The notes below the pieces were generated by a model, which was not told where the DNA came from, searched no databases, and saw only the letters and a list, made by a program, of their open reading frames with translations. Positions 8,973 to 22,938 of a DNA stretch of 27,166 nt are shown piece by piece. Positions within the stretch are counted from its first letter, which is position 1, and the number at the start of each line of letters is the position of its first letter. A program made the translations under genes and the position numbers. Source of the stretch: Candidatus Geohabitans tengchongensis (GTDB lineage: Bacteria > Sysuimicrobiota > Sysuimicrobiia > Sysuimicrobiales > Humicultoraceae); assembly GCA_031459625.1 (NCBI GenBank), contig JAVKIH010000033.1, forward strand, positions 1 through 27,166. Direction: 5' to 3'.

Positions 8973-9862
8973 GCCGGCGCCCCGTCCGGTGACCCTCCGG
9001 TCGGTCCGCCCTGCCCCCAGCCCGGGCGCGGCCGGCGACGGCGCCGCCTGCGACGCCGCCGCCCCCTCGGCACCCTCACCGCTCCTGCGACCGCCGGCGT
9101 CTCCTCTCGACTCACGGCCTCTCCGCCCTGAGCCTCTCCGGCCTGTGCCTCTGCGCCCCCGACCGCTGCGCTCTCAACCACGCTGCCCTCGACCACGCCG
9201 CCCTCGACCGCGCTGCCCTGGACCGTGCTGCCCCCGGCCGCCGGGACGGCTCCGGCCGGTTCGGCGGCCCACACCGGCTCTGCGCCGGCGGGGAGCTCCG
9301 GTGCCCTGCCCGCGTCCTCCTCCTCGGCCGGCGTCTCCTCCCCGCGTGCCCGCGCCGCTTCGCGCCGGGCCGGGACGAGGCGCGGCAGGTCCCGCTCCGC
9401 CGCGTCCTTGATCTTGGCCAGCATGCGGTCGAGCGCCCGGCCCATCACCAGGCGGGCTGTCGTCTCCCCCAGCAGCGGGATGCCGGTCTCCACCTCCACG
9501 CGGGCGCGCACCACGCTCTCCGCGCCCTCGGCGGTGACCGCGTACTCCCCCTCCAGGTGGCGGAAGGTGCCGCGGACCTGCCGGAACTCCACGCGCGCGG
9601 GAGGCCGCAGGCGGATCACCTGGACCGACTCCACCGGCATGCCGCCGAAGTAGCCGCGCAGCTCGGCCGTGACCTGCTGGCTCTCGCGCTCCAGGATGTC
9701 GGCGACCAGCCACAGGTCGGTGAACCAGCGGGGGAGGCTCTCCACCCGGCTGAGGAGCTGGTAGACCCGCTGCTGCGGGGCGCGGATCCGCCGCTCCCGC
9801 TCGACGCGCACGGGACGGGGCGCGGCGCGGCGCAGCCGTCCCGCGCCGCCGGACGTCCTCAC
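8969..9862 (-). CDS. SRPBCC (polyketide cyclase/START-like) domain protein with an acidic/Arg-rich disordered tail
   Basis: ERRIRAPQQRVYQLLSRVESLPRW...FRQVRGTFRHLEGEY...LAKIKDAAE. Coupled to both neighbours by GTGA/ATGA overlaps. Confidence 0.75.
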   Translation of the reverse strand: MRTSGGAGRLRRAAPRPVRVERERRIRAPQQRVYQLLSRVESLPRWFTDLWLVADILERESQQVTAELRGYFGGMPVESVQVIRLRPPARVEFRQVRGTFRHLEGEYAVTAEGAESVVRARVEVETGIPLLGETTARLVMGRALDRMLAKIKDAAERDLPRLVPARREAARARGEETPAEEEDAGRAPELPAGAEPVWAAEPAGAVPAAGGSTVQGSAVEGGVVEGSVVESAAVGGAEAQAGEAQGGEAVSREETPAVAGAVRVPRGRRRRRRRRRRPRPGWGQGGPTGGSPDGAPA

Positions 9863-11874
9863 CGGCGCCCTCCTGCCGCTCCGCCGGCGCCGCCCCCCGT
9901 CTCGTGCGGGTCCCCCGCGACACCGGGGCCTCCCCCCGCTTCGTGGGGCTCTCCCACGGCACCGGCCACGCCTCCCGGCTGGTGCGGGACTTCCCCGACA
10001 CCGGCGCCGCCGGCGCTCCCGTCGCGGGCCGGCGCGGCCCGCTCAGCCGAGGCGGCCCGTACCGCCTCGGCCAGGCGGATCACCCGGTCGTACCGCCCGA
10101 AGGCCGGGATCAGGTAGACGCCTTGCACCCGCGGCCGGATGGCGGCGATCAGGTCAAAGGCCAGCTGCAGCCCCACCTCCCGGGCGTCGCCGCCGGCCGC
10201 GCGCAGCCGCTCCCGCACGGCGTCCGGGACGGCCATCCCCGGGACCTCGTTGTGGAGGAACTCGGCGTGGCGGACGCCGTGCAGCGGCAGCACCCCGACG
10301 ATCACCGGCACCGGCAGCCGCCCCACCCGGGCCAGGAAGCGGTCGAGGGTCTCGGGGTCGAAGAGCGGCATGGTGCACAGGAAGTCGCACCCGGCCGCCA
10401 GCTTCTGCTCCAGGACGCGCAGCTCGCGGTCCAGGTGGCGCGCTCCCATGTTCAGCGCCGCGCCGACGACGAAGGCGGTGGGCTGCCCCAGGTCGTTGCC
10501 CGGCAGGTCCCGCCCCTGGTTGAACCGCTTCACCAGCCGGATCAGCCCCGTGGGGGTGACGTCGGAGACGGCCGTGGCCGTGGGGTAGTCCCCCAGCTGC
10601 GGCGGGTCGCCGCGCAGCACCAGCAGGTGGCGGATCCCCAGGGCGTGCAGCGCCAGCAGGTCCGACTGGACGCGCATGAGGTTGCGGTCGCGGGTGGTGA
10701 AGTGGAGGATCGTGGGCAGCCCCACCTCCTGCTCGATGCGCAGGGCCATCCCCCAGGGGCTCATGCGCAGGCGGGCCATGGGGTTGTCGGGGACGTTCAC
10801 CGCGTCGACGCCGGCCTGGCGCAGCAGGCGGCAGGTACCCAGCTCCGGGCCCTCCTGGGTCCCCCGCGGCGGCGCCACCTCGACCGTGACGACGAAGCCG
10901 CGGCGCAGGCGCTCCGCCAGGGTCGTGGGCGGGGCCGGTGGGGCGGCCGGCTGCGGGGCGGCCGTCGGAGCCACGGTCAGGCGCGGCGGGCGCCGCCACG
11001 CCGCCGTCGCAACCGCCTCACCCATGGCGCGGATGTGCTGGGGCGTGGTCCCGCAGCACCCGCCCACGATGGCCACCCCGAGCTCGACCAGCTGCCGTGC
11101 GTAGTCGGCCATGTAGGCGGGCGTGGAGGCGTAGATCACCCGCCCGCCCACGTAGGAGGGGAAGCCGGCGTTGGGCATGGCCGAGAGCGGCAGCCGCGTC
11201 AGCAGCACCAGCTGCTCCATCACCTGCAGGATGCCCTGGGCGCCCACGCTGCAGTTGGCCCCCAGCGCCGCCACCCCCAGCGGCTCGAGCCGCGCCACGA
11301 TGTCGGCGGGGGTGTGGCCCAGCAGCGTGCGCCCCTCGTGGGTGAAGGTCATCTGCGCCACGATGGGGAGCGCCGCGGCCGCCCGGGCTGCGGCCACCCC
11401 GGCGGCCAGCTCGGCCAGGTCGGTGAAGGTCTCGAAGAGGAGGAGGTCCACCCCGCCCTCGGCCAGGGCCGCGGCCTGCTCGGCGAAGACCTCCCCCGCC
11501 TCCTCGGGCGTGACCGCCCCGAGCGGCGCCAGCGGCCGGCCGATCGGCCCGATCGACCCGGCCACCCACACCCGCCGCCCGGCCGCGGCGGCGACCTCCC
11601 GGGCCAGCCGGGCGCCGGCCACGTTCAGCTCGCGCACGCGCTCCTCCAGGCCGTGGGCGGCCAGCTTGAAGCGGTTGGCCCCGAAGGTGTTGGTCTCCAG
11701 CAGCTCGGCGCCCGCCTCCACGTACTCCCGGTGGATCGCCTGCACGAGGTCGGGCTGCTCGGCGTTGAGGGCGTCGAAGCACTGGTCGAAGGGGACGCCG
11801 CGGGCGTAGAGCATGGTGCCCATGGCCCCGTCGGCCAGCAGCGGACCGCGCGCCAGCCGCTCCAGGAACTCCAC
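9859..11874 (-). CDS. yitJ: Bifunctional homocysteine S-methyltransferase / 5,10-methylenetetrahydrofolate reductase (YitJ-like)
   Basis: LADGAMGT, ETNTFGAN, GANCS, PNAG, GGCCGTTP in the HMT domain; PDNPMARLRM, RDRN, RGDPP, EFLHNEVPG in the MTHFR domain. Confidence 0.92.
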   Translation of the reverse strand: MEFLERLARGPLLADGAMGTMLYARGVPFDQCFDALNAEQPDLVQAIHREYVEAGAELLETNTFGANRFKLAAHGLEERVRELNVAGARLAREVAAAAGRRVWVAGSIGPIGRPLAPLGAVTPEEAGEVFAEQAAALAEGGVDLLLFETFTDLAELAAGVAAARAAAALPIVAQMTFTHEGRTLLGHTPADIVARLEPLGVAALGANCSVGAQGILQVMEQLVLLTRLPLSAMPNAGFPSYVGGRVIYASTPAYMADYARQLVELGVAIVGGCCGTTPQHIRAMGEAVATAAWRRPPRLTVAPTAAPQPAAPPAPPTTLAERLRRGFVVTVEVAPPRGTQEGPELGTCRLLRQAGVDAVNVPDNPMARLRMSPWGMALRIEQEVGLPTILHFTTRDRNLMRVQSDLLALHALGIRHLLVLRGDPPQLGDYPTATAVSDVTPTGLIRLVKRFNQGRDLPGNDLGQPTAFVVGAALNMGARHLDRELRVLEQKLAAGCDFLCTMPLFDPETLDRFLARVGRLPVPVIVGVLPLHGVRHAEFLHNEVPGMAVPDAVRERLRAAGGDAREVGLQLAFDLIAAIRPRVQGVYLIPAFGRYDRVIRLAEAVRAASAERAAPARDGSAGGAGVGEVPHQPGGVAGAVGEPHEAGGGPGVAGDPHETGGGAGGAAGGRR

Positions 11875-15537: not shown

Positions 15538-16107
15538 TTACGCGCGGGAGGCGCCGGCCACGGGCTGCGGGGCGTCCCGCTCGGCATCCACCGGGCAGAA
15601 GAACCCGAAGGGCTCGCGCGGGTCCGGGTTGAGGAACTGGTGGGGCGCCCCCGGCGGCACGTAGACCACGTCCAGCGGCCGCACCTCGAAGCGCTCCGCG
15701 CCCACGCGCACCACGCCGCGCCCGCGCACGACGACCACGGCGTGCACGTGCCGGTGGCGCTCCAGGCTGCTGTACCCGCCCGGCGCCACCTCGAAGTAGC
15801 GCAGGTGGAAGCGGGCCGGCTCGCCGGCGCTGCCGATGAGCGTGTGGCGCGTCACCCCCTCCCAGGCGAGGTCCGCCTCCCGGGCCGGCTTGTAGGCCTG
15901 CGGGGGGACGCCCTCCCAGGTGAAGGTGGCCGGGTCGAAGCGCATCAGCACCCGGCTCGTCCGGAGGCCCGGTTCCGGGATTTCACAGGAGGACGCGTAG
16001 AGGGCGGACGCGGCACCCTCCGGTGCGGGTGCCCGCCGGCGCCCGGCCGGTCCGGGCCGCTCCGGACGCAGCCCTCCTCCGCCTGACCGCCGCCGGACCC
16101 TCCTCAC
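15538..16107 (-). CDS. Cupin-2 protein resembling the R. rubrum Rru_A2000 methylthioxylulose-5-phosphate methylsulfurylase family
   Basis: W.GV..AYK, VTRHTL, LRYFEVAPGGYSSLERHRHVH, PHQF, GFFCPVDAERD.PQ. Start is either GTG 16107 (GTGA overlap) or ATG 15945. The similarity is from recall, not an alignment. Confidence 0.75.
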   Translation of the reverse strand: MRRVRRRSGGGGLRPERPGPAGRRRAPAPEGAASALYASSCEIPEPGLRTSRVLMRFDPATFTWEGVPPQAYKPAREADLAWEGVTRHTLIGSAGEPARFHLRYFEVAPGGYSSLERHRHVHAVVVVRGRGVVRVGAERFEVRPLDVVYVPPGAPHQFLNPDPREPFGFFCPVDAERDAPQPVAGASRA

Positions 16108-17102
16108 GGCCTCACCACCACCTTCAGCGCGTCGCCCGACGCCACCAGCCGGTATCCCTCGGCCGCACGCTCGAGCGGCAGCCGGTGGGTGACCAGCCGC
16201 TCGACGGGCAGCCCCGCCGCCAGCAGCCGCAGCGCCTCCCGGGTGTCGGCCGGCCCGGCGGAGTAGCTGGGGATCACCGACACCTCCCGGAAGAAGAGGT
16301 CGTGCACCGCCAGGGGGAAGGTGGCGCCGGGCGGGAGCGGGGCAAAGAGCACGAGGCGTCCCGCCGGTGCCGTGCAGGCCATCCCGGTGGCGATGGCGTC
16401 GACGCTGGGTGGGGTCACCACGACCACGTCGGCTCCCCCACCCGGGACCGCTTTGTCGATGTCGCCTCCGAGCGCGCGCGCCGTCTCCTGGCGGTCCGGG
16501 CGCACGTCCAGCCCCGCCACCACCGCCGCCCCCAACGCCCGCGCCGCCAGCACGTGCAGGAGGCCCATCACCCCCAGGCCCACGACGGCCACGCGGTCCC
16601 CCTCCCGCAATCCCGCCCGCCGCAGGCTCTTCACCGCGCAGGCCAGCGGTTCGACGAAGACCCCCCGCTCGTCGTCGACCTCCTGTGGCAGCGGCAGGAG
16701 GTCGGCTGCGACGATCTCAGGCGGGACGAGGGTATAGTCGGCCAGCCCTCCGGGCTCCAGCCGGGTCCGGCGCCAGGTGGGGCAGTGCACGGCATCCCCG
16801 CGGCGGCAGGCCCGGCACGCGCCGCACGGCGCGTGGTGGTGGACGAAGACCCGCGTCCCTTCGGGGAGCTCGACGCCCGGCCCTGTCGCCGCCACCTCGC
16901 CCACCGGCTCGTGGCCAAGCGGGACCGGCGCCTTGCGCGCCATGTACCAGGCCATGGTCTCGCCGCTGCACAGCCCGCAGGCGCGGACGCGCACCAGGAC
17001 CTCACCCGGCCCAGGAGGTCGCAGCGGCCGCGTCTCCAGTCGGACGTCCCCCTCGCCGTGGTAGACCGCGGCCCGCGTGAGCGTGGGCAGCGTCAGGGCC
17101 AC
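16104..17102 (-). CDS. Zn-dependent MDR polyol-dehydrogenase-like protein (probably NAD-preferring)
   Basis: GLCSGE, LGHE, CGACRAC...HC, EPLAC, VVGLGVMG, GLD at the end of the second Rossmann strand. GTG start overlaps the upstream gene end. Confidence 0.88.
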   Translation of the reverse strand: MALTLPTLTRAAVYHGEGDVRLETRPLRPPGPGEVLVRVRACGLCSGETMAWYMARKAPVPLGHEPVGEVAATGPGVELPEGTRVFVHHHAPCGACRACRRGDAVHCPTWRRTRLEPGGLADYTLVPPEIVAADLLPLPQEVDDERGVFVEPLACAVKSLRRAGLREGDRVAVVGLGVMGLLHVLAARALGAAVVAGLDVRPDRQETARALGGDIDKAVPGGGADVVVVTPPSVDAIATGMACTAPAGRLVLFAPLPPGATFPLAVHDLFFREVSVIPSYSAGPADTREALRLLAAGLPVERLVTHRLPLERAAEGYRLVASGDALKVVVRP

Positions 17103-18274
17103 GGGGGCTCTCCCGCGAGCGGAGCGGCCCCGTCCGGGACGATCGCCACCTTCAGGTGGGCCCCGCGGTCCAGCTCTTGGAAGACCTCCACGATCTCCCC
17201 GAGCGGCCGTACCGCCGTGACGAGCGGGCCCACGTTGATGCGCCGCTCCGCCAGCCACCGCCGCGCCTCGGCCACGTCATCCGAGGTGTAGTGGAAGGCG
17301 CTGACCAGGTCCACCTCGCCGTAGTGGAGGCGGGCGGCGTCGAAGGTGGCACGGGCCCCGGGCGCCAGCCCTCCGAAGAGGAGGACGCTCCCGCCGCTGC
17401 GCACCCACGCGGGCGCCGCCGTCCACACCGCTGCGCTGCCGGTGGCTTCCACCACCACGTCCGGGGCCTCGCCCAGCGCCCCCTCCAGATGGCGCCGCAC
17501 CGTCTCGGATCCAGAAGCTCCTGGGGCCCCGCGCCGGTGCGCTTTCCCGAGCCCTGCAGCCTCGCCCCGGCCATGCGCGCCGCCCTCGCCGCCCGAGACG
17601 TCGACGGGCAGCCCCCCCAGCGCCGCCACGAGCTCCAGCCGGTCGCGCCGCCGCGCCACCACCGCCGGGCGCAGCCCCAACCGCAGGCCCGTGAGCAGGA
17701 AGAGGAAGGCGATGGCCCCCGACCCCACCACGGCGACGGACGGCCCGCCATTGCCTGCCCACCCGTCAGCTCGCCCCAGCAGGCCCAGGCGCCGCCAGCC
17801 GTGCAGCACGCACGCCAGCGGCTCCAGGAAGGCCGCCTCCGTGTACCGCAGCTCCGGGGGCTTGGGGAAGAGGTGCCGCGCCGCCACCGGAGGCGTCACC
17901 AGCACGTGCTCGGCGTAGGCGCCCAGCACGATGTCCTGAAAGAGGCGGGGACAGTGGTTCTCGGCGCCGCGCCGGCACGCCGCGCACTGGCCGCACCCCG
18001 CGGTGGGCACGTACATCACCGCGTCACCGGGCCTCACCTGCGCCACGCCCGGGCCCACGGCGACGACGTCGCCAGCGGCCTCATGGCCGAACGGCCCGGG
18101 CCCCAGGCGGGCGTGCCCTCGCCGGTAGGTCTTCAGGTCCGTGCCGCAGGTGAGCGCGGCGCGGACGCGCACCAGCACCTCGCCGGGCCCGGGCGCCGGG
18201 AGGGGACCGTCTTCCAGGGCGAGCCGCCGGGGGGCGCGCAGGACGGCCCGGCGCATCACCCCGGCGGCTGCCAC
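17093..18274 (-). CDS. Zn-dependent MDR polyol-dehydrogenase-like protein (possibly NADP-preferring)
   Basis: TCGTDLK, FGHE, CGQCAAC...HC, EPLAC, VVGSGAIA, ARRRDR. Alternative start is ATG 18256. Confidence 0.88.
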   Translation of the reverse strand: MAAAGVMRRAVLRAPRRLALEDGPLPAPGPGEVLVRVRAALTCGTDLKTYRRGHARLGPGPFGHEAAGDVVAVGPGVAQVRPGDAVMYVPTAGCGQCAACRRGAENHCPRLFQDIVLGAYAEHVLVTPPVAARHLFPKPPELRYTEAAFLEPLACVLHGWRRLGLLGRADGWAGNGGPSVAVVGSGAIAFLFLLTGLRLGLRPAVVARRRDRLELVAALGGLPVDVSGGEGGAHGRGEAAGLGKAHRRGAPGASGSETVRRHLEGALGEAPDVVVEATGSAAVWTAAPAWVRSGGSVLLFGGLAPGARATFDAARLHYGEVDLVSAFHYTSDDVAEARRWLAERRINVGPLVTAVRPLGEIVEVFQELDRGAHLKVAIVPDGAAPLAGEPPWP

Positions 18275-21270: not shown

Positions 21271-22938
21271 GCGCCAGCCAGGGATTCCGGGCGGCTGCTG
21301 CGGGTCATCGCCCGCCTGCCTGATGGCGCCCTTCGCAGCCGGGTCGAGCGGCTGGCGGGCCGCGAGCGCCGGGCCACGACCCTGCTCGTCGCCTACCTGG
21401 CCGAGCTGGACGCTCGCCGCTTGCACCTGGCGGACGGGTATCCCTCGCTCTTCGCCTACTGCACTCAGGCCTTGCACCTCTCTGAGTACGCCGCCTACCA
21501 CCGCATCCAGGCGGCCCGGACGGTGCGTCGGTTTCCCGTCCTCCTCGGCGAACTGGCCCGGGGGCACCTGACGCTCACCACGCTGAGCCTGCTGGCTCCG
21601 CACCTCACCGCTGCCAACCTCCAGGCGCTGCTGGCCGAGGCGCGCGGGGCCAGCAAGCGGGCCGTGGAAGCGCTGGTGGCGCGCCTGCAGCCTCGCCCTC
21701 CCGTCCCGGCCTCCGTACGCCGTCTCCCAGCCCCGGGAGGGCCGGCGCACCCAGCCCCGGGAGGTTCGGCACACCCAGCCCTGGGAGATTCGGTGCAGCC
21801 TGTCCAGGGAGGTCCAGAGTGCTCCGTCCCGGGAAGTCTGGCGTCCCCTGTCCCCGGAGGTCCAGCACCTCAGCAAGGCCAGCCACCGACGCCGACACCG
21901 AGTCCAACGCTCGGCGTCGACGGGATTCCAGCAGGGGTGGCTGGAGACACCCCGGTCGCCCACGCGCCCGCGGGAGATGAGACAGACCGTGTCCCACCCG
22001 GGACGCCACCCGGCGGCCCCGCGCGGTTTCTGAGGCCGGGCAGCTGCGGCGGCGGGCCATCGGGCGCTGTCACTCCCCTGGCGCCGACGCGCTACCGTGT
22101 CCAGTTCACGGCCGGCCCGGAGACCTATGCCAAGCTGAAGCAGTGCCAGGACCTCCTGCGCCACCAGATCCCCGGCGGTGACCTGGCCCAGCTCTTTGAC
22201 CGAGCCCTGACCGCATTGCTGCGAGAGCTGATGTGCCGGAGGGTGGGCACCCCGCTCCGGCCGGGGCCGGCCCGGACCACCCCGGCGGCGGCTCCCCCGG
22301 CAAGGATCGTGCGGCCGCATGCCGCCACCGCTCCCACGCCCGGAGACGCATCGGCTTCGAATCCCGGCGCACCGACACTCCCACCGGGGCCTTCGCGTCA
22401 CATTCCGGCCGCTGTCCGTCGGGTCGTGTGGGAACGGGACGGCGGCCAGTGCGCGTTCGTCAGTGCAGACGGGCGTCGGTGCCCGGAACGGGGATACCTG
22501 GAATTCCACCACGTCCGCCCCTACGCCCTGGGCGGACCGGCCACCGTGGAGAACATCCAGCTCCGCTGTCGCGCCCACAACGGCTACGAGGCGGACCAGA
22601 TCTTCGGACCGCCCCCCGCGCGGCGCTCAGGGCCGTCCCAACAGAGCGATCAGCGGGCGGCTGCGGATCAGCGCGCGGCTGCGGATCAGCGGACGGCTGC
22701 GGAACGGACGACTGCGGAACGGGCGACTGCGGATCGGGCGACTGCGGATCGGGCCATGAGGCCAGGGCGGAGCCGCCTAACACCGGGACCTGCCGAACAG
22801 GCCCCGCCCCGGACCCAGTTGGCCTCAGCAGCGCAGGCAGGCTCGGCCCCGGCGACCACCCCTGCCCGGAGCCCTGATCAGCCCGGCAGGACCGCTGCGC
22901 AGACCGGCCGGCCTGGCGAGCACAGCCATCCACCCTGA
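21271..22938 (+). CDS. DUF222-like N-terminal domain + C-terminal HNH endonuclease; start codon unclear
   Basis: RLPDGALRSRVERLAGRERRATTLLVAYLAELDARRLHLADGYPSLFAYC N-domain; PLAPTRYRVQFT middle block; HIPAAVRRVVWERDGGQC...C...LEFHHVRPYALGGPATVENIQLRCRAHN HNH domain. The frame is open from 21148 and the first canonical start is TTG 21421. Confidence 0.85.
   Translation, partial: APARDSGRLLRVIARLPDGALRSRVERLAGRERRATTLLVAYLAELDARRLHLADGYPSLFAYCTQALHLSEYAAYHRIQAARTVRRFPVLLGELARGHLTLTTLSLLAPHLTAANLQALLAEARGASKRAVEALVARLQPRPPVPASVRRLPAPGGPAHPAPGGSAHPALGDSVQPVQGGPECSVPGSLASPVPGGPAPQQGQPPTPTPSPTLGVDGIPAGVAGDTPVAHAPAGDETDRVPPGTPPGGPARFLRPGSCGGGPSGAVTPLAPTRYRVQFTAGPETYAKLKQCQDLLRHQIPGGDLAQLFDRALTALLRELMCRRVGTPLRPGPARTTPAAAPPARIVRPHAATAPTPGDASASNPGAPTLPPGPSRHIPAAVRRVVWERDGGQCAFVSADGRRCPERGYLEFHHVRPYALGGPATVENIQLRCRAHNGYEADQIFGPPPARRSGPSQQSDQRAAADQRAAADQRTAAERTTAERATADRATADRAMRPGRSRLTPGPAEQAPPRTQLASAAQAGSAPATTPARSPDQPGRTAAQTGRPGEHSHPP
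21727..21870 (+). repeat. Six degenerate 24-nt in-frame tandem units (PAPGGPAH-like)
   Basis: CCAGCCCCGGGAGGGCCGGCGCAC, CCAGCCCCGGGAGGTTCGGCACAC, CCAGCCCTGGGAGATTCGGTGCAG, then three more diverged copies. Confidence 0.85.
22648..22755 (+). repeat. In-frame tandem repeat: 3 x 18 nt then about 3.6 x 15 nt
   Basis: DQRAAA-DQRAAA-DQRTAA-ERTTA-ERATA-DRATA-DRA. Confidence 0.9.

Follow-up and report, generated by a model that had tools for sequence, protein, structure and literature searches.

The closest described system to the locus reported here is the MTA-isoprenoid shunt of R. rubrum and Rhodopseudomonas palustris. This shunt is described as consisting of MtnP, MtnA, the DeepYkr Rubisco-like protein (RLP) Rru_A1998/RPA2169, and the cupin Rru_A2000/RPA2170 (PMC5893883, PMC4334135), where the substrate of the R. 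rubrum cupin is produced by an RLP (PMC5893883). The only known version of a route that makes DXP from S-adenosylmethionine waste needs the RLP. The DHAP shunt/Drd pathway (MtnP or MtnK, MtnA, and Ald2/DrdA) is described with the same entry steps and the same ribulose-1-P intermediates, but there a class II aldolase cleaves the C5 sugar, with neither redox isomerisation nor DXP (PMC6079011, PMC5893883). A survey from 2023 gives 181 of 4,400 species that have the full MEP pathway but no Dxs, of which 172 were left unexplained, and four more species that have the cupin but no RLP (PMC10663253).

The window, which is the whole stretch of 27,166 nucleotides that was analysed, encodes two Zn-dependent dehydrogenases (MDR1 and MDR2) and a cupin (Table 1). 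We consider it likely that MDR1 and MDR2 together carry out a two-step redox isomerisation in place of the RLP and thereby provide DXP, where the net reaction would be the same in either order of the two steps. This reading draws on gene content, co-occurrence, RLP exclusion, coenzyme-site residues, and phylogeny. The replacement of an RLP by a dehydrogenase pair was not found in the literature searched.

Table 1. Positions of the module genes and the neighbouring gene in the window.
Feature	Positions	Strand	Basis
MDR1, Zn-dependent medium-chain dehydrogenase/reductase (ORF)	17093..18274	-	Pfam ADH_N + ADH_zinc_N
Putative ribosome-binding site of MDR2 (GGGAGAG), in the 3' end of MDR1	17108..17114	-	Read from sequence
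MDR2, Zn-dependent dehydrogenase	16104..17102	-	GTG start; Pfam
Cupin, Rru_A2000 (1-methylthio-xylulose-5-P methylsulfurylase) group	15538..15945	-	phmmer vs PDB
Bifunctional homocysteine S-methyltransferase/MTHFR, neighbour only	9859..11874	-	NF006396, 699 bits, over cut-off

The arrangement given in a preliminary description of this DNA was confirmed, with all three ORFs located on the minus strand and a 10-nt overlap (17093-17102) between MDR1 and MDR2. The likely start of MDR1 from the comparison of homologues is ATG 18256. The putative ribosome-binding site lies 5 nt upstream of the MDR2 GTG start. Translational coupling of the three genes had also been proposed. Upstream, the cupin frame stays open as far as GTG 16107, which would give a GTGA overlap with MDR2, whereas the conserved cupin region starts at ATG 15945. 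The 54-codon extension between them is low-complexity and was not found in the alignment of 18 cupins, therefore the GTGA coupling of the cupin is in doubt. The true start of the cupin probably lies elsewhere than at the GTGA; a start at ATG 15945 leaves a gap of 158 nt to MDR2. The homocysteine methyltransferase/MTHFR gene was correctly placed at about 4 kb from the module (3.7 kb to its end). The gene was rejected as a module member, being found at only seven of 80 related loci, six of which are from the window's own lineage, a pattern of lineage synteny. The genes moeZ, iscA, nifU, and rtcB were likewise rejected as pathway members; they accompany the module within that lineage only.

The host genome shares with the MTA-isoprenoid shunt an MtnA, an Rru_A2000-group cupin in which the His and Cys residues are conserved, the downstream MEP pathway, and the predicted product DXP. 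It differs from the shunt in having two unrelated MDR enzymes instead of an RLP, and in lacking an MtnP orthologue, a MetY over the cut-off, and dxs. The absence of an RLP, which the proposal calls for, was found as no PF00016 match in an assembly that is 94% complete.

The cupin search with phmmer against the PDB retrieved 3IBM (1.8e-27), 3JZV, which is Rru_A2000 (2.5e-25), and 3KGZ (9.2e-22), where the next unrelated cupin had an E-value of 6.6e-6. The residues H64, H66, H68, H102, C117, R123, and D124 are invariant in all 18 aligned cupins. The Rru_A2000-type motifs noted earlier are present, and the motif GF.C.V..ERD aligns with 3JZV. We take the Cys of this motif to be the catalytic residue (C121).

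The cupin was identified in 13 of 401 sampled Bacillota. Five of these have an RLP and no MDR2 orthologue (best MDR2 score 153 bits vs at least 455 bits for Nitrospirota orthologues); in three of them, RLP and cupin are no more than about 2 kb apart. The other eight have no RLP, with the DeepYkr RLP (MTRu-1-P 1,3-isomerase) not found in any, and all eight have MDR2, seven as MDR1-MDR2-cupin and one unlinked. MDR2 and the RLP alternate as the cupin partner in 13 of 13 cupin-bearing Bacillota (Fisher p 8e-4, uncorrected for kinship), which agrees with the earlier claim that the pair stands in for the RLP. Among 50 module genomes, 43 have no PF00016 match. The other seven carry a gene of the Rubisco family, which is a form I Rubisco in one and an RLP in six; within the ~1.5 kb flanks, no such gene lies beside a cupin. 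These seven genes were rejected as cupin partners, since one is the form I Rubisco, three are located by moeA, and three are in sugar-ABC clusters.

MDR1-MDR2-cupin is a module conserved in several phyla. In other genomes, 80 MDR2 loci were compared: 50 have a full-scoring MDR1, a number that rises to 53 by tblastn when pieces at contig edges are counted, and 39 have the cupin inside the fetched flank. The arrangement is therefore not due to chance. MDR2 tends to remain next to the cupin where the module is split. MDR2 was not found in the plasmid search, nor the cupin in the viral-contig search. Of the 50 module genomes, 47 have mtnA, 46 have dxr, and 15 have dxs. No dxs was found in 31 of the 46 dxr-positive genomes, compared with 181 of 4,400 species in the survey (PMC10663253), and these 31 include three single-chromosome Binatia assemblies (G023, G031, and G045). 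The cupin was not found in nine of the 50 genomes, six of which are dxr-positive and dxs-negative. The gene mtnA is frequent regardless (eight of 14 control genomes). It lies within the fetched flank at only eight of the 80 loci, all or nearly all from Vulcanimicrobiota. Two Nitrospirota have it some 10 kb away from MDR1, and in the host genome it is not near the module. The replacement of the RLP by the dehydrogenase pair is supported by comparative genomics, and the three points on which the proposal was examined all came out in its favour: the cupin falls in the Rru_A2000 group, mtnA is present in the host genome (C9:34412-35545; TIGR00512 417 bits vs cut-off 279), and the pair co-occurs with mtnA.

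Both dehydrogenases, which are 34% identical, belong to the Zn-dependent MDR superfamily that has a GroES-like domain, a Rossmann fold, a catalytic Zn (Cys/Asp, His, Glu), and a four-Cys structural Zn. MDR1 conserves the catalytic Zn motifs C/D-G-T-D, GHE, and EP and the four structural Cys. The AlphaFold model of MDR2 (pLDDT 93.8) exhibits an ordinary MDR fold, and the usual proton-relay Ser/Thr position is Gly in 72 of 81 MDR2 sequences. The genes are labelled L-iditol 2-dehydrogenase in the database. The coenzyme site of MDR1 has no acidic residue in 43 of 44 orthologues (G/A-R-R), a count that leaves out loci L039 and L053, which were at first scored as MDR1 and are unrelated MDRs. Asp199 of MDR2 is present in all 81 orthologues. 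From these residues, MDR2 looks NAD+-specific and MDR1 looks NADPH-specific, and the two signatures point in the direction of the xylulose product.

The two genes might instead encode an ordinary pair of polyol or sugar-phosphate oxidoreductases, similar to sorbitol, arabitol-phosphate, or threonine dehydrogenases, with the cupin as a bystander and no link to SAM by-products or isoprenoids. The database label fits such a pair and so do the best family and PDB matches, which are polyol dehydrogenases. However, all such matches are far under the cut-offs (best NCBIfam score 119.5 vs 450 bits). The best PDB matches in the fold search with the MDR2 model are 28-31% identical, with no solved structure above about 31%. 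The annotated neighbour families include none that recurs and is recognisable as a PTS, sugar transporter, or kinase, and a polyol pair would leave the RLP exclusion and the dxs pattern unexplained. We therefore regard it as very unlikely. D-arabitol-phosphate dehydrogenase, presumably itself an MDR family member, is likened to MDR2 by reaction and not by sequence. The enzyme of Enterococcus avium and AtlD of Bacillus methanolicus are described to interconvert arabitol-1-P and xylulose-5-P, which is the reaction that MDR2 would catalyse if reduction comes first; they differ in serving PTS-linked arabitol catabolism (PMC6685057), and the surroundings of the module contain no recognised genes for a PTS or for arabitol use.

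The host genome has dxr and ispD-H, all over the cut-offs, i.e., every MEP enzyme except DXP synthase. The best TIGR00204 score is only 141 bits vs the cut-off of 466 and belongs to a transketolase. A divergent dxs was rejected, the best matches being the transketolase and E1 alpha/beta pairs. In the host, ispA ends 14 nt before tlyA, and dxs sits between these two genes in all three Bacillota checked. The loss of dxs to an assembly gap is unlikely as ispA-tlyA is contiguous, though dxs could still be elsewhere in the missing 6%. The absence of dxs was overlooked in the preliminary description and is a stronger point than the one made there. Because the host has no dxs, the module is likely its main DXP supply, compared with a side shunt in the MTA-isoprenoid shunt, and the same is probably true wherever dxs has been lost.

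MDR2 was identified in 57 of 201 Nitrospirota, MDR1 in 58, and both in 55, even when unlinked. Both are present in 13 of 14 dxs-less Nitrospirota vs 44 of 187 dxs-positive ones; the remaining dxs-less genome (G188) has neither. Of the 13 carriers without dxs, about 11 seem to belong to a single lineage with small genomes, thus independent losses of dxs are few, and kinship inflates the co-occurrence counts. The gene dxs is retained in 44 of 57 MDR2-positive Nitrospirota and in three of five tested MDR-type Bacillota. Its retention in most Nitrospirota carriers would suit a module that mainly serves disposal or runs in reverse (detoxification of 5'-deoxyadenosine/MTA sugars or recycling of DXP), with the DXP of dxs-less carriers coming from, for example, a promiscuous transketolase or E1. 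The host has a transketolase and several E1-type enzymes, and in E. coli a mutant E1 is reported to substitute for dxs (cited in PMC5462960). However, the concentration of the pair in dxs-less Nitrospirota and the NADPH/NAD+ signatures make this the least probable of the explanations considered.

Under the preferred reading of a redox isomerase, MTA would come from spermidine synthase (SpeE), which is present in the host genome, while radical-SAM enzymes would be the source of 5'-deoxyadenosine. A single PNP would cleave the nucleoside, directly or after deamination, which is the least certain step. No MtnP or MtnK orthologue was found in the host genome. Its single PF01048 gene scores as PNP-I (TIGR01700 336 bits; MTAP 85 vs 275) and has Asp at the position equated by motif with human Asn243, where the E201Q:N243D change is described to open human PNP to adenosine substrates (PMC2799393). 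The deaminase candidate scores below all cut-offs. The MtnA product would be 5-methylthio- or 5-deoxy-D-ribulose-1-phosphate, for which several class II aldolases in the host could compete. MDR1 is predicted to reduce C2 with NADPH and MDR2 to oxidise C4 with NAD+, yielding 1-methylthio-xylulose-5-P or DXP directly. The cupin would likely strip the methylthio group from the former, and DXP would then enter the MEP pathway of a host that has no dxs. Reduction first, via D-arabinitol-1-P, is slightly favoured over oxidation first, and the stereochemistry proposed earlier, from ribulose-1-P through D-arabinitol-1-P to D-xylulose-5-P, is consistent on paper. Substrates, regiochemistry, direction, and flux are predicted here from comparative genomics. 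Methionine salvage is doubtful in the host because no MetY orthologue was found; the two MetY-like genes that come closest reach 363 and 342 against a cut-off of 495 (TIGR01326), and one of them is a cystathionine gamma-synthase. The thiol acceptor in R. rubrum is glutathione, and a GshB motif was not found in the host genome.

The absence of a clear MtnP or MtnK, together with the strong link to dxs loss, would also fit a dedicated Dxs bypass that draws DXP from a source other than MtnA (e.g., central pentose phosphates or an unknown thio-sugar) and is not a salvage route. Hopanoid producers may need more than salvage can deliver, and hpnH adjoins MDR2 at 16 of the 80 loci. However, such a source would require a removal of oxygen that is beyond two dehydrogenases, the known cupin substrate is a methylthio-sugar, mtnA is present in nearly all module genomes, and the sister clade of MDR2 is found in mtnA/mtnP/mtnK clusters. 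This bypass is unlikely, if slightly less so than the polyol pair.

In a quick IQ-TREE tree without characterised reference enzymes, MDR1 forms its own clade (SH-aLRT 100) and MDR2 is sister to an LsrF/MtnA-linked clade, MDR3 (SH-aLRT 96). All 49 Nitrospirota genomes with MDR3 also have lsrF, and the two occur together at 50 of 80 metagenome loci; MDR3 is also found in apt-mtnA-lsrF-MDR3-mtnP and mtnA-mtnK-ABC-MDR3 clusters. P-HPD is described as the LsrF substrate (PMC6410053), and it is the C4-oxidised form of 5-deoxyribulose-1-P. From its place beside mtnA, mtnP, and the thiolase LsrF, this clade is predicted to oxidise 5-deoxy/methylthio-ribulose-1-P at C4, the same reaction that is predicted for MDR2. 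The LsrF branch differs in that it would end in DHAP and acetyl-CoA and not in DXP, and the host has no lsrF orthologue (best 29.5% identity).

This relationship bears on the order of the two steps within the isomerase reading. In the opposite order, MDR2 would act first, using NAD+ to oxidise C4 and so form the 2,4-diketone P-HPD or the methylthio equivalent; reduction of C2 by MDR1 with NADPH would then yield DXP or MTXu-5P. The constant company of MDR3 and LsrF argues for it, as do W52, Y53, K57, H89, H90, and Y280, which are common to MDR2 and MDR3 and missing from MDR1 (mean identity 38% vs 28%). However, the partners do not mix, which suggests different products: lsrF is present in one of 36 genomes with MDR2 and without MDR3, MDR1 in two of 28 genomes with MDR3 and without MDR2, and 21 genomes kept both MDR2 and MDR3. 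The pocket residues also differ between MDR2 and MDR3 (H88/S, W110/L, D134/G, and S281/G), and MDR2 tends to stay by the cupin. Oxidation first is a tentative option that takes up part of the confidence placed in the isomerase as a whole.

With less confidence than in the isomerase itself, we lean towards a wider picture where whole lineages (the window's own group, Binatia, and some Vulcanimicrobiota, Nitrospirota, and Bacillota) dropped DXP synthase and make all their isoprenoids from S-adenosylmethionine waste via the two-dehydrogenase isomerase. One ancestral C4 dehydrogenase family would then route the same sugar to DXP (with MDR1) or to acetyl-CoA and DHAP (with LsrF). The module provides two candidate enzymes that would close the gap of the Dxs-less species reported in the survey (PMC10663253). 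If true, this adds two new enzyme activities, and genes that databases list as 'L-iditol 2-dehydrogenase' gain a function. It would also mean that 5'-deoxyadenosine and MTA have a further, new fate and that the MEP pathway can be entered without thiamine or pyruvate, which could be of use in terpenoid engineering.

Two Zn-dependent dehydrogenase genes (MDR1 and MDR2) and a cupin gene form a real and widespread three-gene module. MDR1 and MDR2 share 34% identity, and neither reached an NCBIfam model at cut-off. Their genes overlap by 10 nt where the preliminary description had placed the overlap. The GTGA overlap that it also suggested exists in the sequence, but the 54 extra cupin codons it entails match nothing in 17 other cupins. 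The top three PDB matches of the cupin are 3IBM, 3JZV (Rru_A2000, the cupin that acts in the MTA-isoprenoid shunt of R. rubrum), and 3KGZ (all E <= 1e-21). Other cupins follow only from 6.6e-6, and this gap bears out the likeness to Rru_A2000 that had been noticed. The window also contains an ORF with a weak HNH domain match (E 3e-4) and a third MDR gene, quinone-oxidoreductase-like, that falls outside the MDR1/MDR2 pair in the tree.

Coordinates of the features in the window and in the loci compared
Feature	Location	Strand	Remark
MDR1	17093-18274	minus	probable start ATG 18256
MDR2	16104-17102	minus	
Cupin	15538-15945	minus	frame open up to GTG 16107
ORF with HNH match	21421-22938	plus	
Third MDR gene	768-1766	minus	
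MDR2 behind hpnH	L040:6989-7984		
ispA, then tlyA, nadK	L375:11539-13372 (G000 contig C45)		no intervening dxs
PNP gene of G000	L010:1489-2331 = C45:18573-19415		
eIF-2B-like isomerases of G000	L002:1331-2377; L003:1405-2367		
Cupin cluster of G590	L347:5422-9641		
MDR3-LsrF pairs alongside apt, mtnA, mtnP or mtnK	L234-L240; L276:1046-6832; L305:1-6038		some contigs with archaeal-looking neighbours

At least 391 relatives of MDR2 were confirmed in genome contigs and the best 80 were used as loci. The labels among these best 80 include Binatota (18), Vulcanimicrobiota (15), Nitrospirota (11), Myxococcota (5), Bacillota (3), and the window's own lineage. On these contigs, many of them short, 50 loci have a full-score MDR1 and 39 have the cupin, with 22 of the 80 having both. 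The remaining neighbours of MDR2 differ by lineage in these loci: the window's group has moeZ, iscA, rtcB, and homocysteine methyltransferase there, and Vulcanimicrobiota have riboflavin genes and mtnA. The nearby homocysteine methyltransferase gene, earlier linked with the module, proved largely peculiar to the window's group among the best 80 loci. In L040 and 15 further loci (Binatia-type genomes), the gene immediately preceding MDR2 is hpnH, the hopanoid radical-SAM gene. PMC5462960 describes Acidobacteria with an unexplained Zn-dehydrogenase before hpnC, a possible member of this family. The physical linkage of mtnA to MDR1 and MDR2 is weak, a point against the proposed DXP-forming role.

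Fifty module genomes, which are not independent of one another, were picked by hand from the best 80 loci (long contigs, spread). Of these, 49 have MDR1 (E <= 1e-40); mtnA was found in 47, dxr in 46 (43 over the cut-off), the cupin in 41, dxs in 15, and a Rubisco-family gene in 7. The mtnA count agrees with the co-occurrence that had been anticipated for the pair. dxs is absent from 31 of the 46 dxr-positive genomes. Six of these 31 also have no cupin match, one with a contig end soon after MDR2. Such carriers could be supplied from 5'-deoxyadenosine alone, where no cupin is required. G021, G022, G029, G044, and G049 have MDR1, MDR2, mtnA, and dxr with neither dxs nor a cupin match, and are candidates for 5'-deoxyadenosine-only DXP supply or for a different methylthio-removing enzyme. 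The Rubisco-like protein (RLP) of R. rubrum reportedly converts 5-deoxyribulose-1-P directly to DXP.

In the window's own genome (G000, completeness 94.2%), a search found no RLP, as the preliminary reading had supposed. Neither dxs nor an orthologue of lsrF, MtnP, or MtnK was found in it, no MetY scored over the cut-off, and a single frame was a candidate match to an HMG-CoA reductase motif. The order ispA-dxs-tlyA was seen in all three Bacillota genomes checked (G303, G494, and G256); in G000, ispA stops 14 nt short of tlyA. The only PNP-family gene of G000 is PNP-I-like and lies within a deoB-PNP-pdp-type cluster. With Asp at the position equated, by motif, with human Asn243, its product may be able to use adenine nucleosides, for example MTA or 5'-deoxyadenosine. 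G000 also has two more eIF-2B-like sugar-phosphate isomerases, whose nearest models are ribose-1,5-bisphosphate isomerase-type and which score below all cut-offs. A second, stand-alone methylsulfurylase-like cupin is found in genomes related to the window's lineage (G010 and G007, at L354 and L355; also G009 and G008).

Unbiased samples covered 201 Nitrospirota and 401 Bacillota genomes. MDR2 was found in 57 Nitrospirota (E <= 1e-130), MDR1 in 58, and both in 55, with at most 10 candidates scored per genome and some carriers possibly missed. Fourteen of the 201 are without dxs, and 13 of these 14 have both MDRs. These 13 carriers probably represent few loss events, since about 11 of them have genomes of 1.6-2.0 Mb and gene order is alike in the four viewed. 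dxs is retained in 44 MDR2-carrying Nitrospirota, which weighs against the reading of the module as a DXP source. G188 (Nitrospirota) has no dxs match and neither MDR among the at most 10 candidates scored, and is a candidate for an incomplete genome or another bypass. RLPs at L092-L094 (Nitrospirota) lie directly downstream of moeA, with OiaX/form III as top-scoring models, below cut-off. The cupin was found in 13 Bacillota, of which 8 have MDR2 without RLP and 5 have RLP without MDR2. This alternation is expected of two alternative enzymes at one step. dxs is present in 3/5 MDR-type and 4/5 RLP-type Bacillota tested. G590 (Bacillota) has a compact cluster of the classical MTA-isoprenoid shunt, in which a cysK-like gene, metY, and RLP flank the cupin.

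In the MDR family, the residue at the discriminating position tells the coenzyme. MDR2 has Asp there in 81/81 sequences (predicted NAD+ type), and MDR1 mostly has Gly or Ala followed by Arg, with no acid in 43/44 (predicted NADPH type). A third clade, MDR3, first met in Nitrospirota, is sister to MDR2 (SH-aLRT 96 in a quick tree of 56 rows) and has Asp in 75/76. lsrF adjoins MDR3 in 7/7 loci fetched and is present in 49/49 MDR3 genomes of Nitrospirota (3 counted from contig-edge fragments). Among 80 metagenome MDR3 loci, lsrF is found in 50, mtnP in 10, and mtnA in 6. Five MDR3 loci have the order mtnA-lsrF-MDR3 with mtnP convergent and an apt-like gene upstream (one confirmed by NCBIfam), and another has mtnA-mtnK-ABC transporter-MDR3 (confirmed by NCBIfam). 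From this gene content, the MDR3-LsrF loci likely encode an oxidative salvage of 5'-deoxyadenosine and MTA with DHAP and acetyl-CoA as end products, and the likely reaction of the MDR2/MDR3 family is C4 oxidation of the sugars that MtnA supplies. C4 oxidation and C2 reduction with retention at C3 would give the D-xylulose-5-P skeleton, as DXP or MTXu-5-P, and this net assignment is valid whichever redox step comes first.

Two orders are suggested. C4 may be oxidised by MDR2 before C2 is reduced by MDR1, as the sister relationship of MDR2 and MDR3 would favour. The reverse order, C2 by MDR1 before C4 by MDR2, is that of the preliminary description and is slightly preferred here. It is supported by strict partner fidelity, where lsrF is found in 1/36 carriers of MDR2 without MDR3 and MDR1 in 2/28 carriers of MDR3 without MDR2 (both MDR2 and MDR3 in 21). 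The pocket residues of MDR2 and MDR3 also differ in a fixed manner, and MDR2 remains near the cupin where MDR1 has relocated.

The module resembles the MTA-isoprenoid shunt in its working and lies outside the RLP-defined form of that shunt. Judged by comparative genomics, it likely serves RLP-independent DXP formation from SAM by-products and would probably be the main DXP source of dxs-less carriers such as G000. Neither a dehydrogenase substitute for RLP nor LsrF-linked salvage was found in the openly searchable full-text literature or in the accessible parts of PMC6302742, PMC5893883, PMC10663253, PMC5462960, PMC6079011, PMC4334135, PMC2799393, PMC6410053, PMC6685057, and bioRxiv 2023.08.10.552779. 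A text search of PMC8102628 gave no match. These genes may be named in supplementary files to Erb 2012 or North 2020. In PMC10663253, three Chloracidobacterium species and Thermodesulfovibrio yellowstonii are recorded as having the cupin and neither RLP nor Dxs, and the MDR1-MDR2-cupin module would account for this profile.
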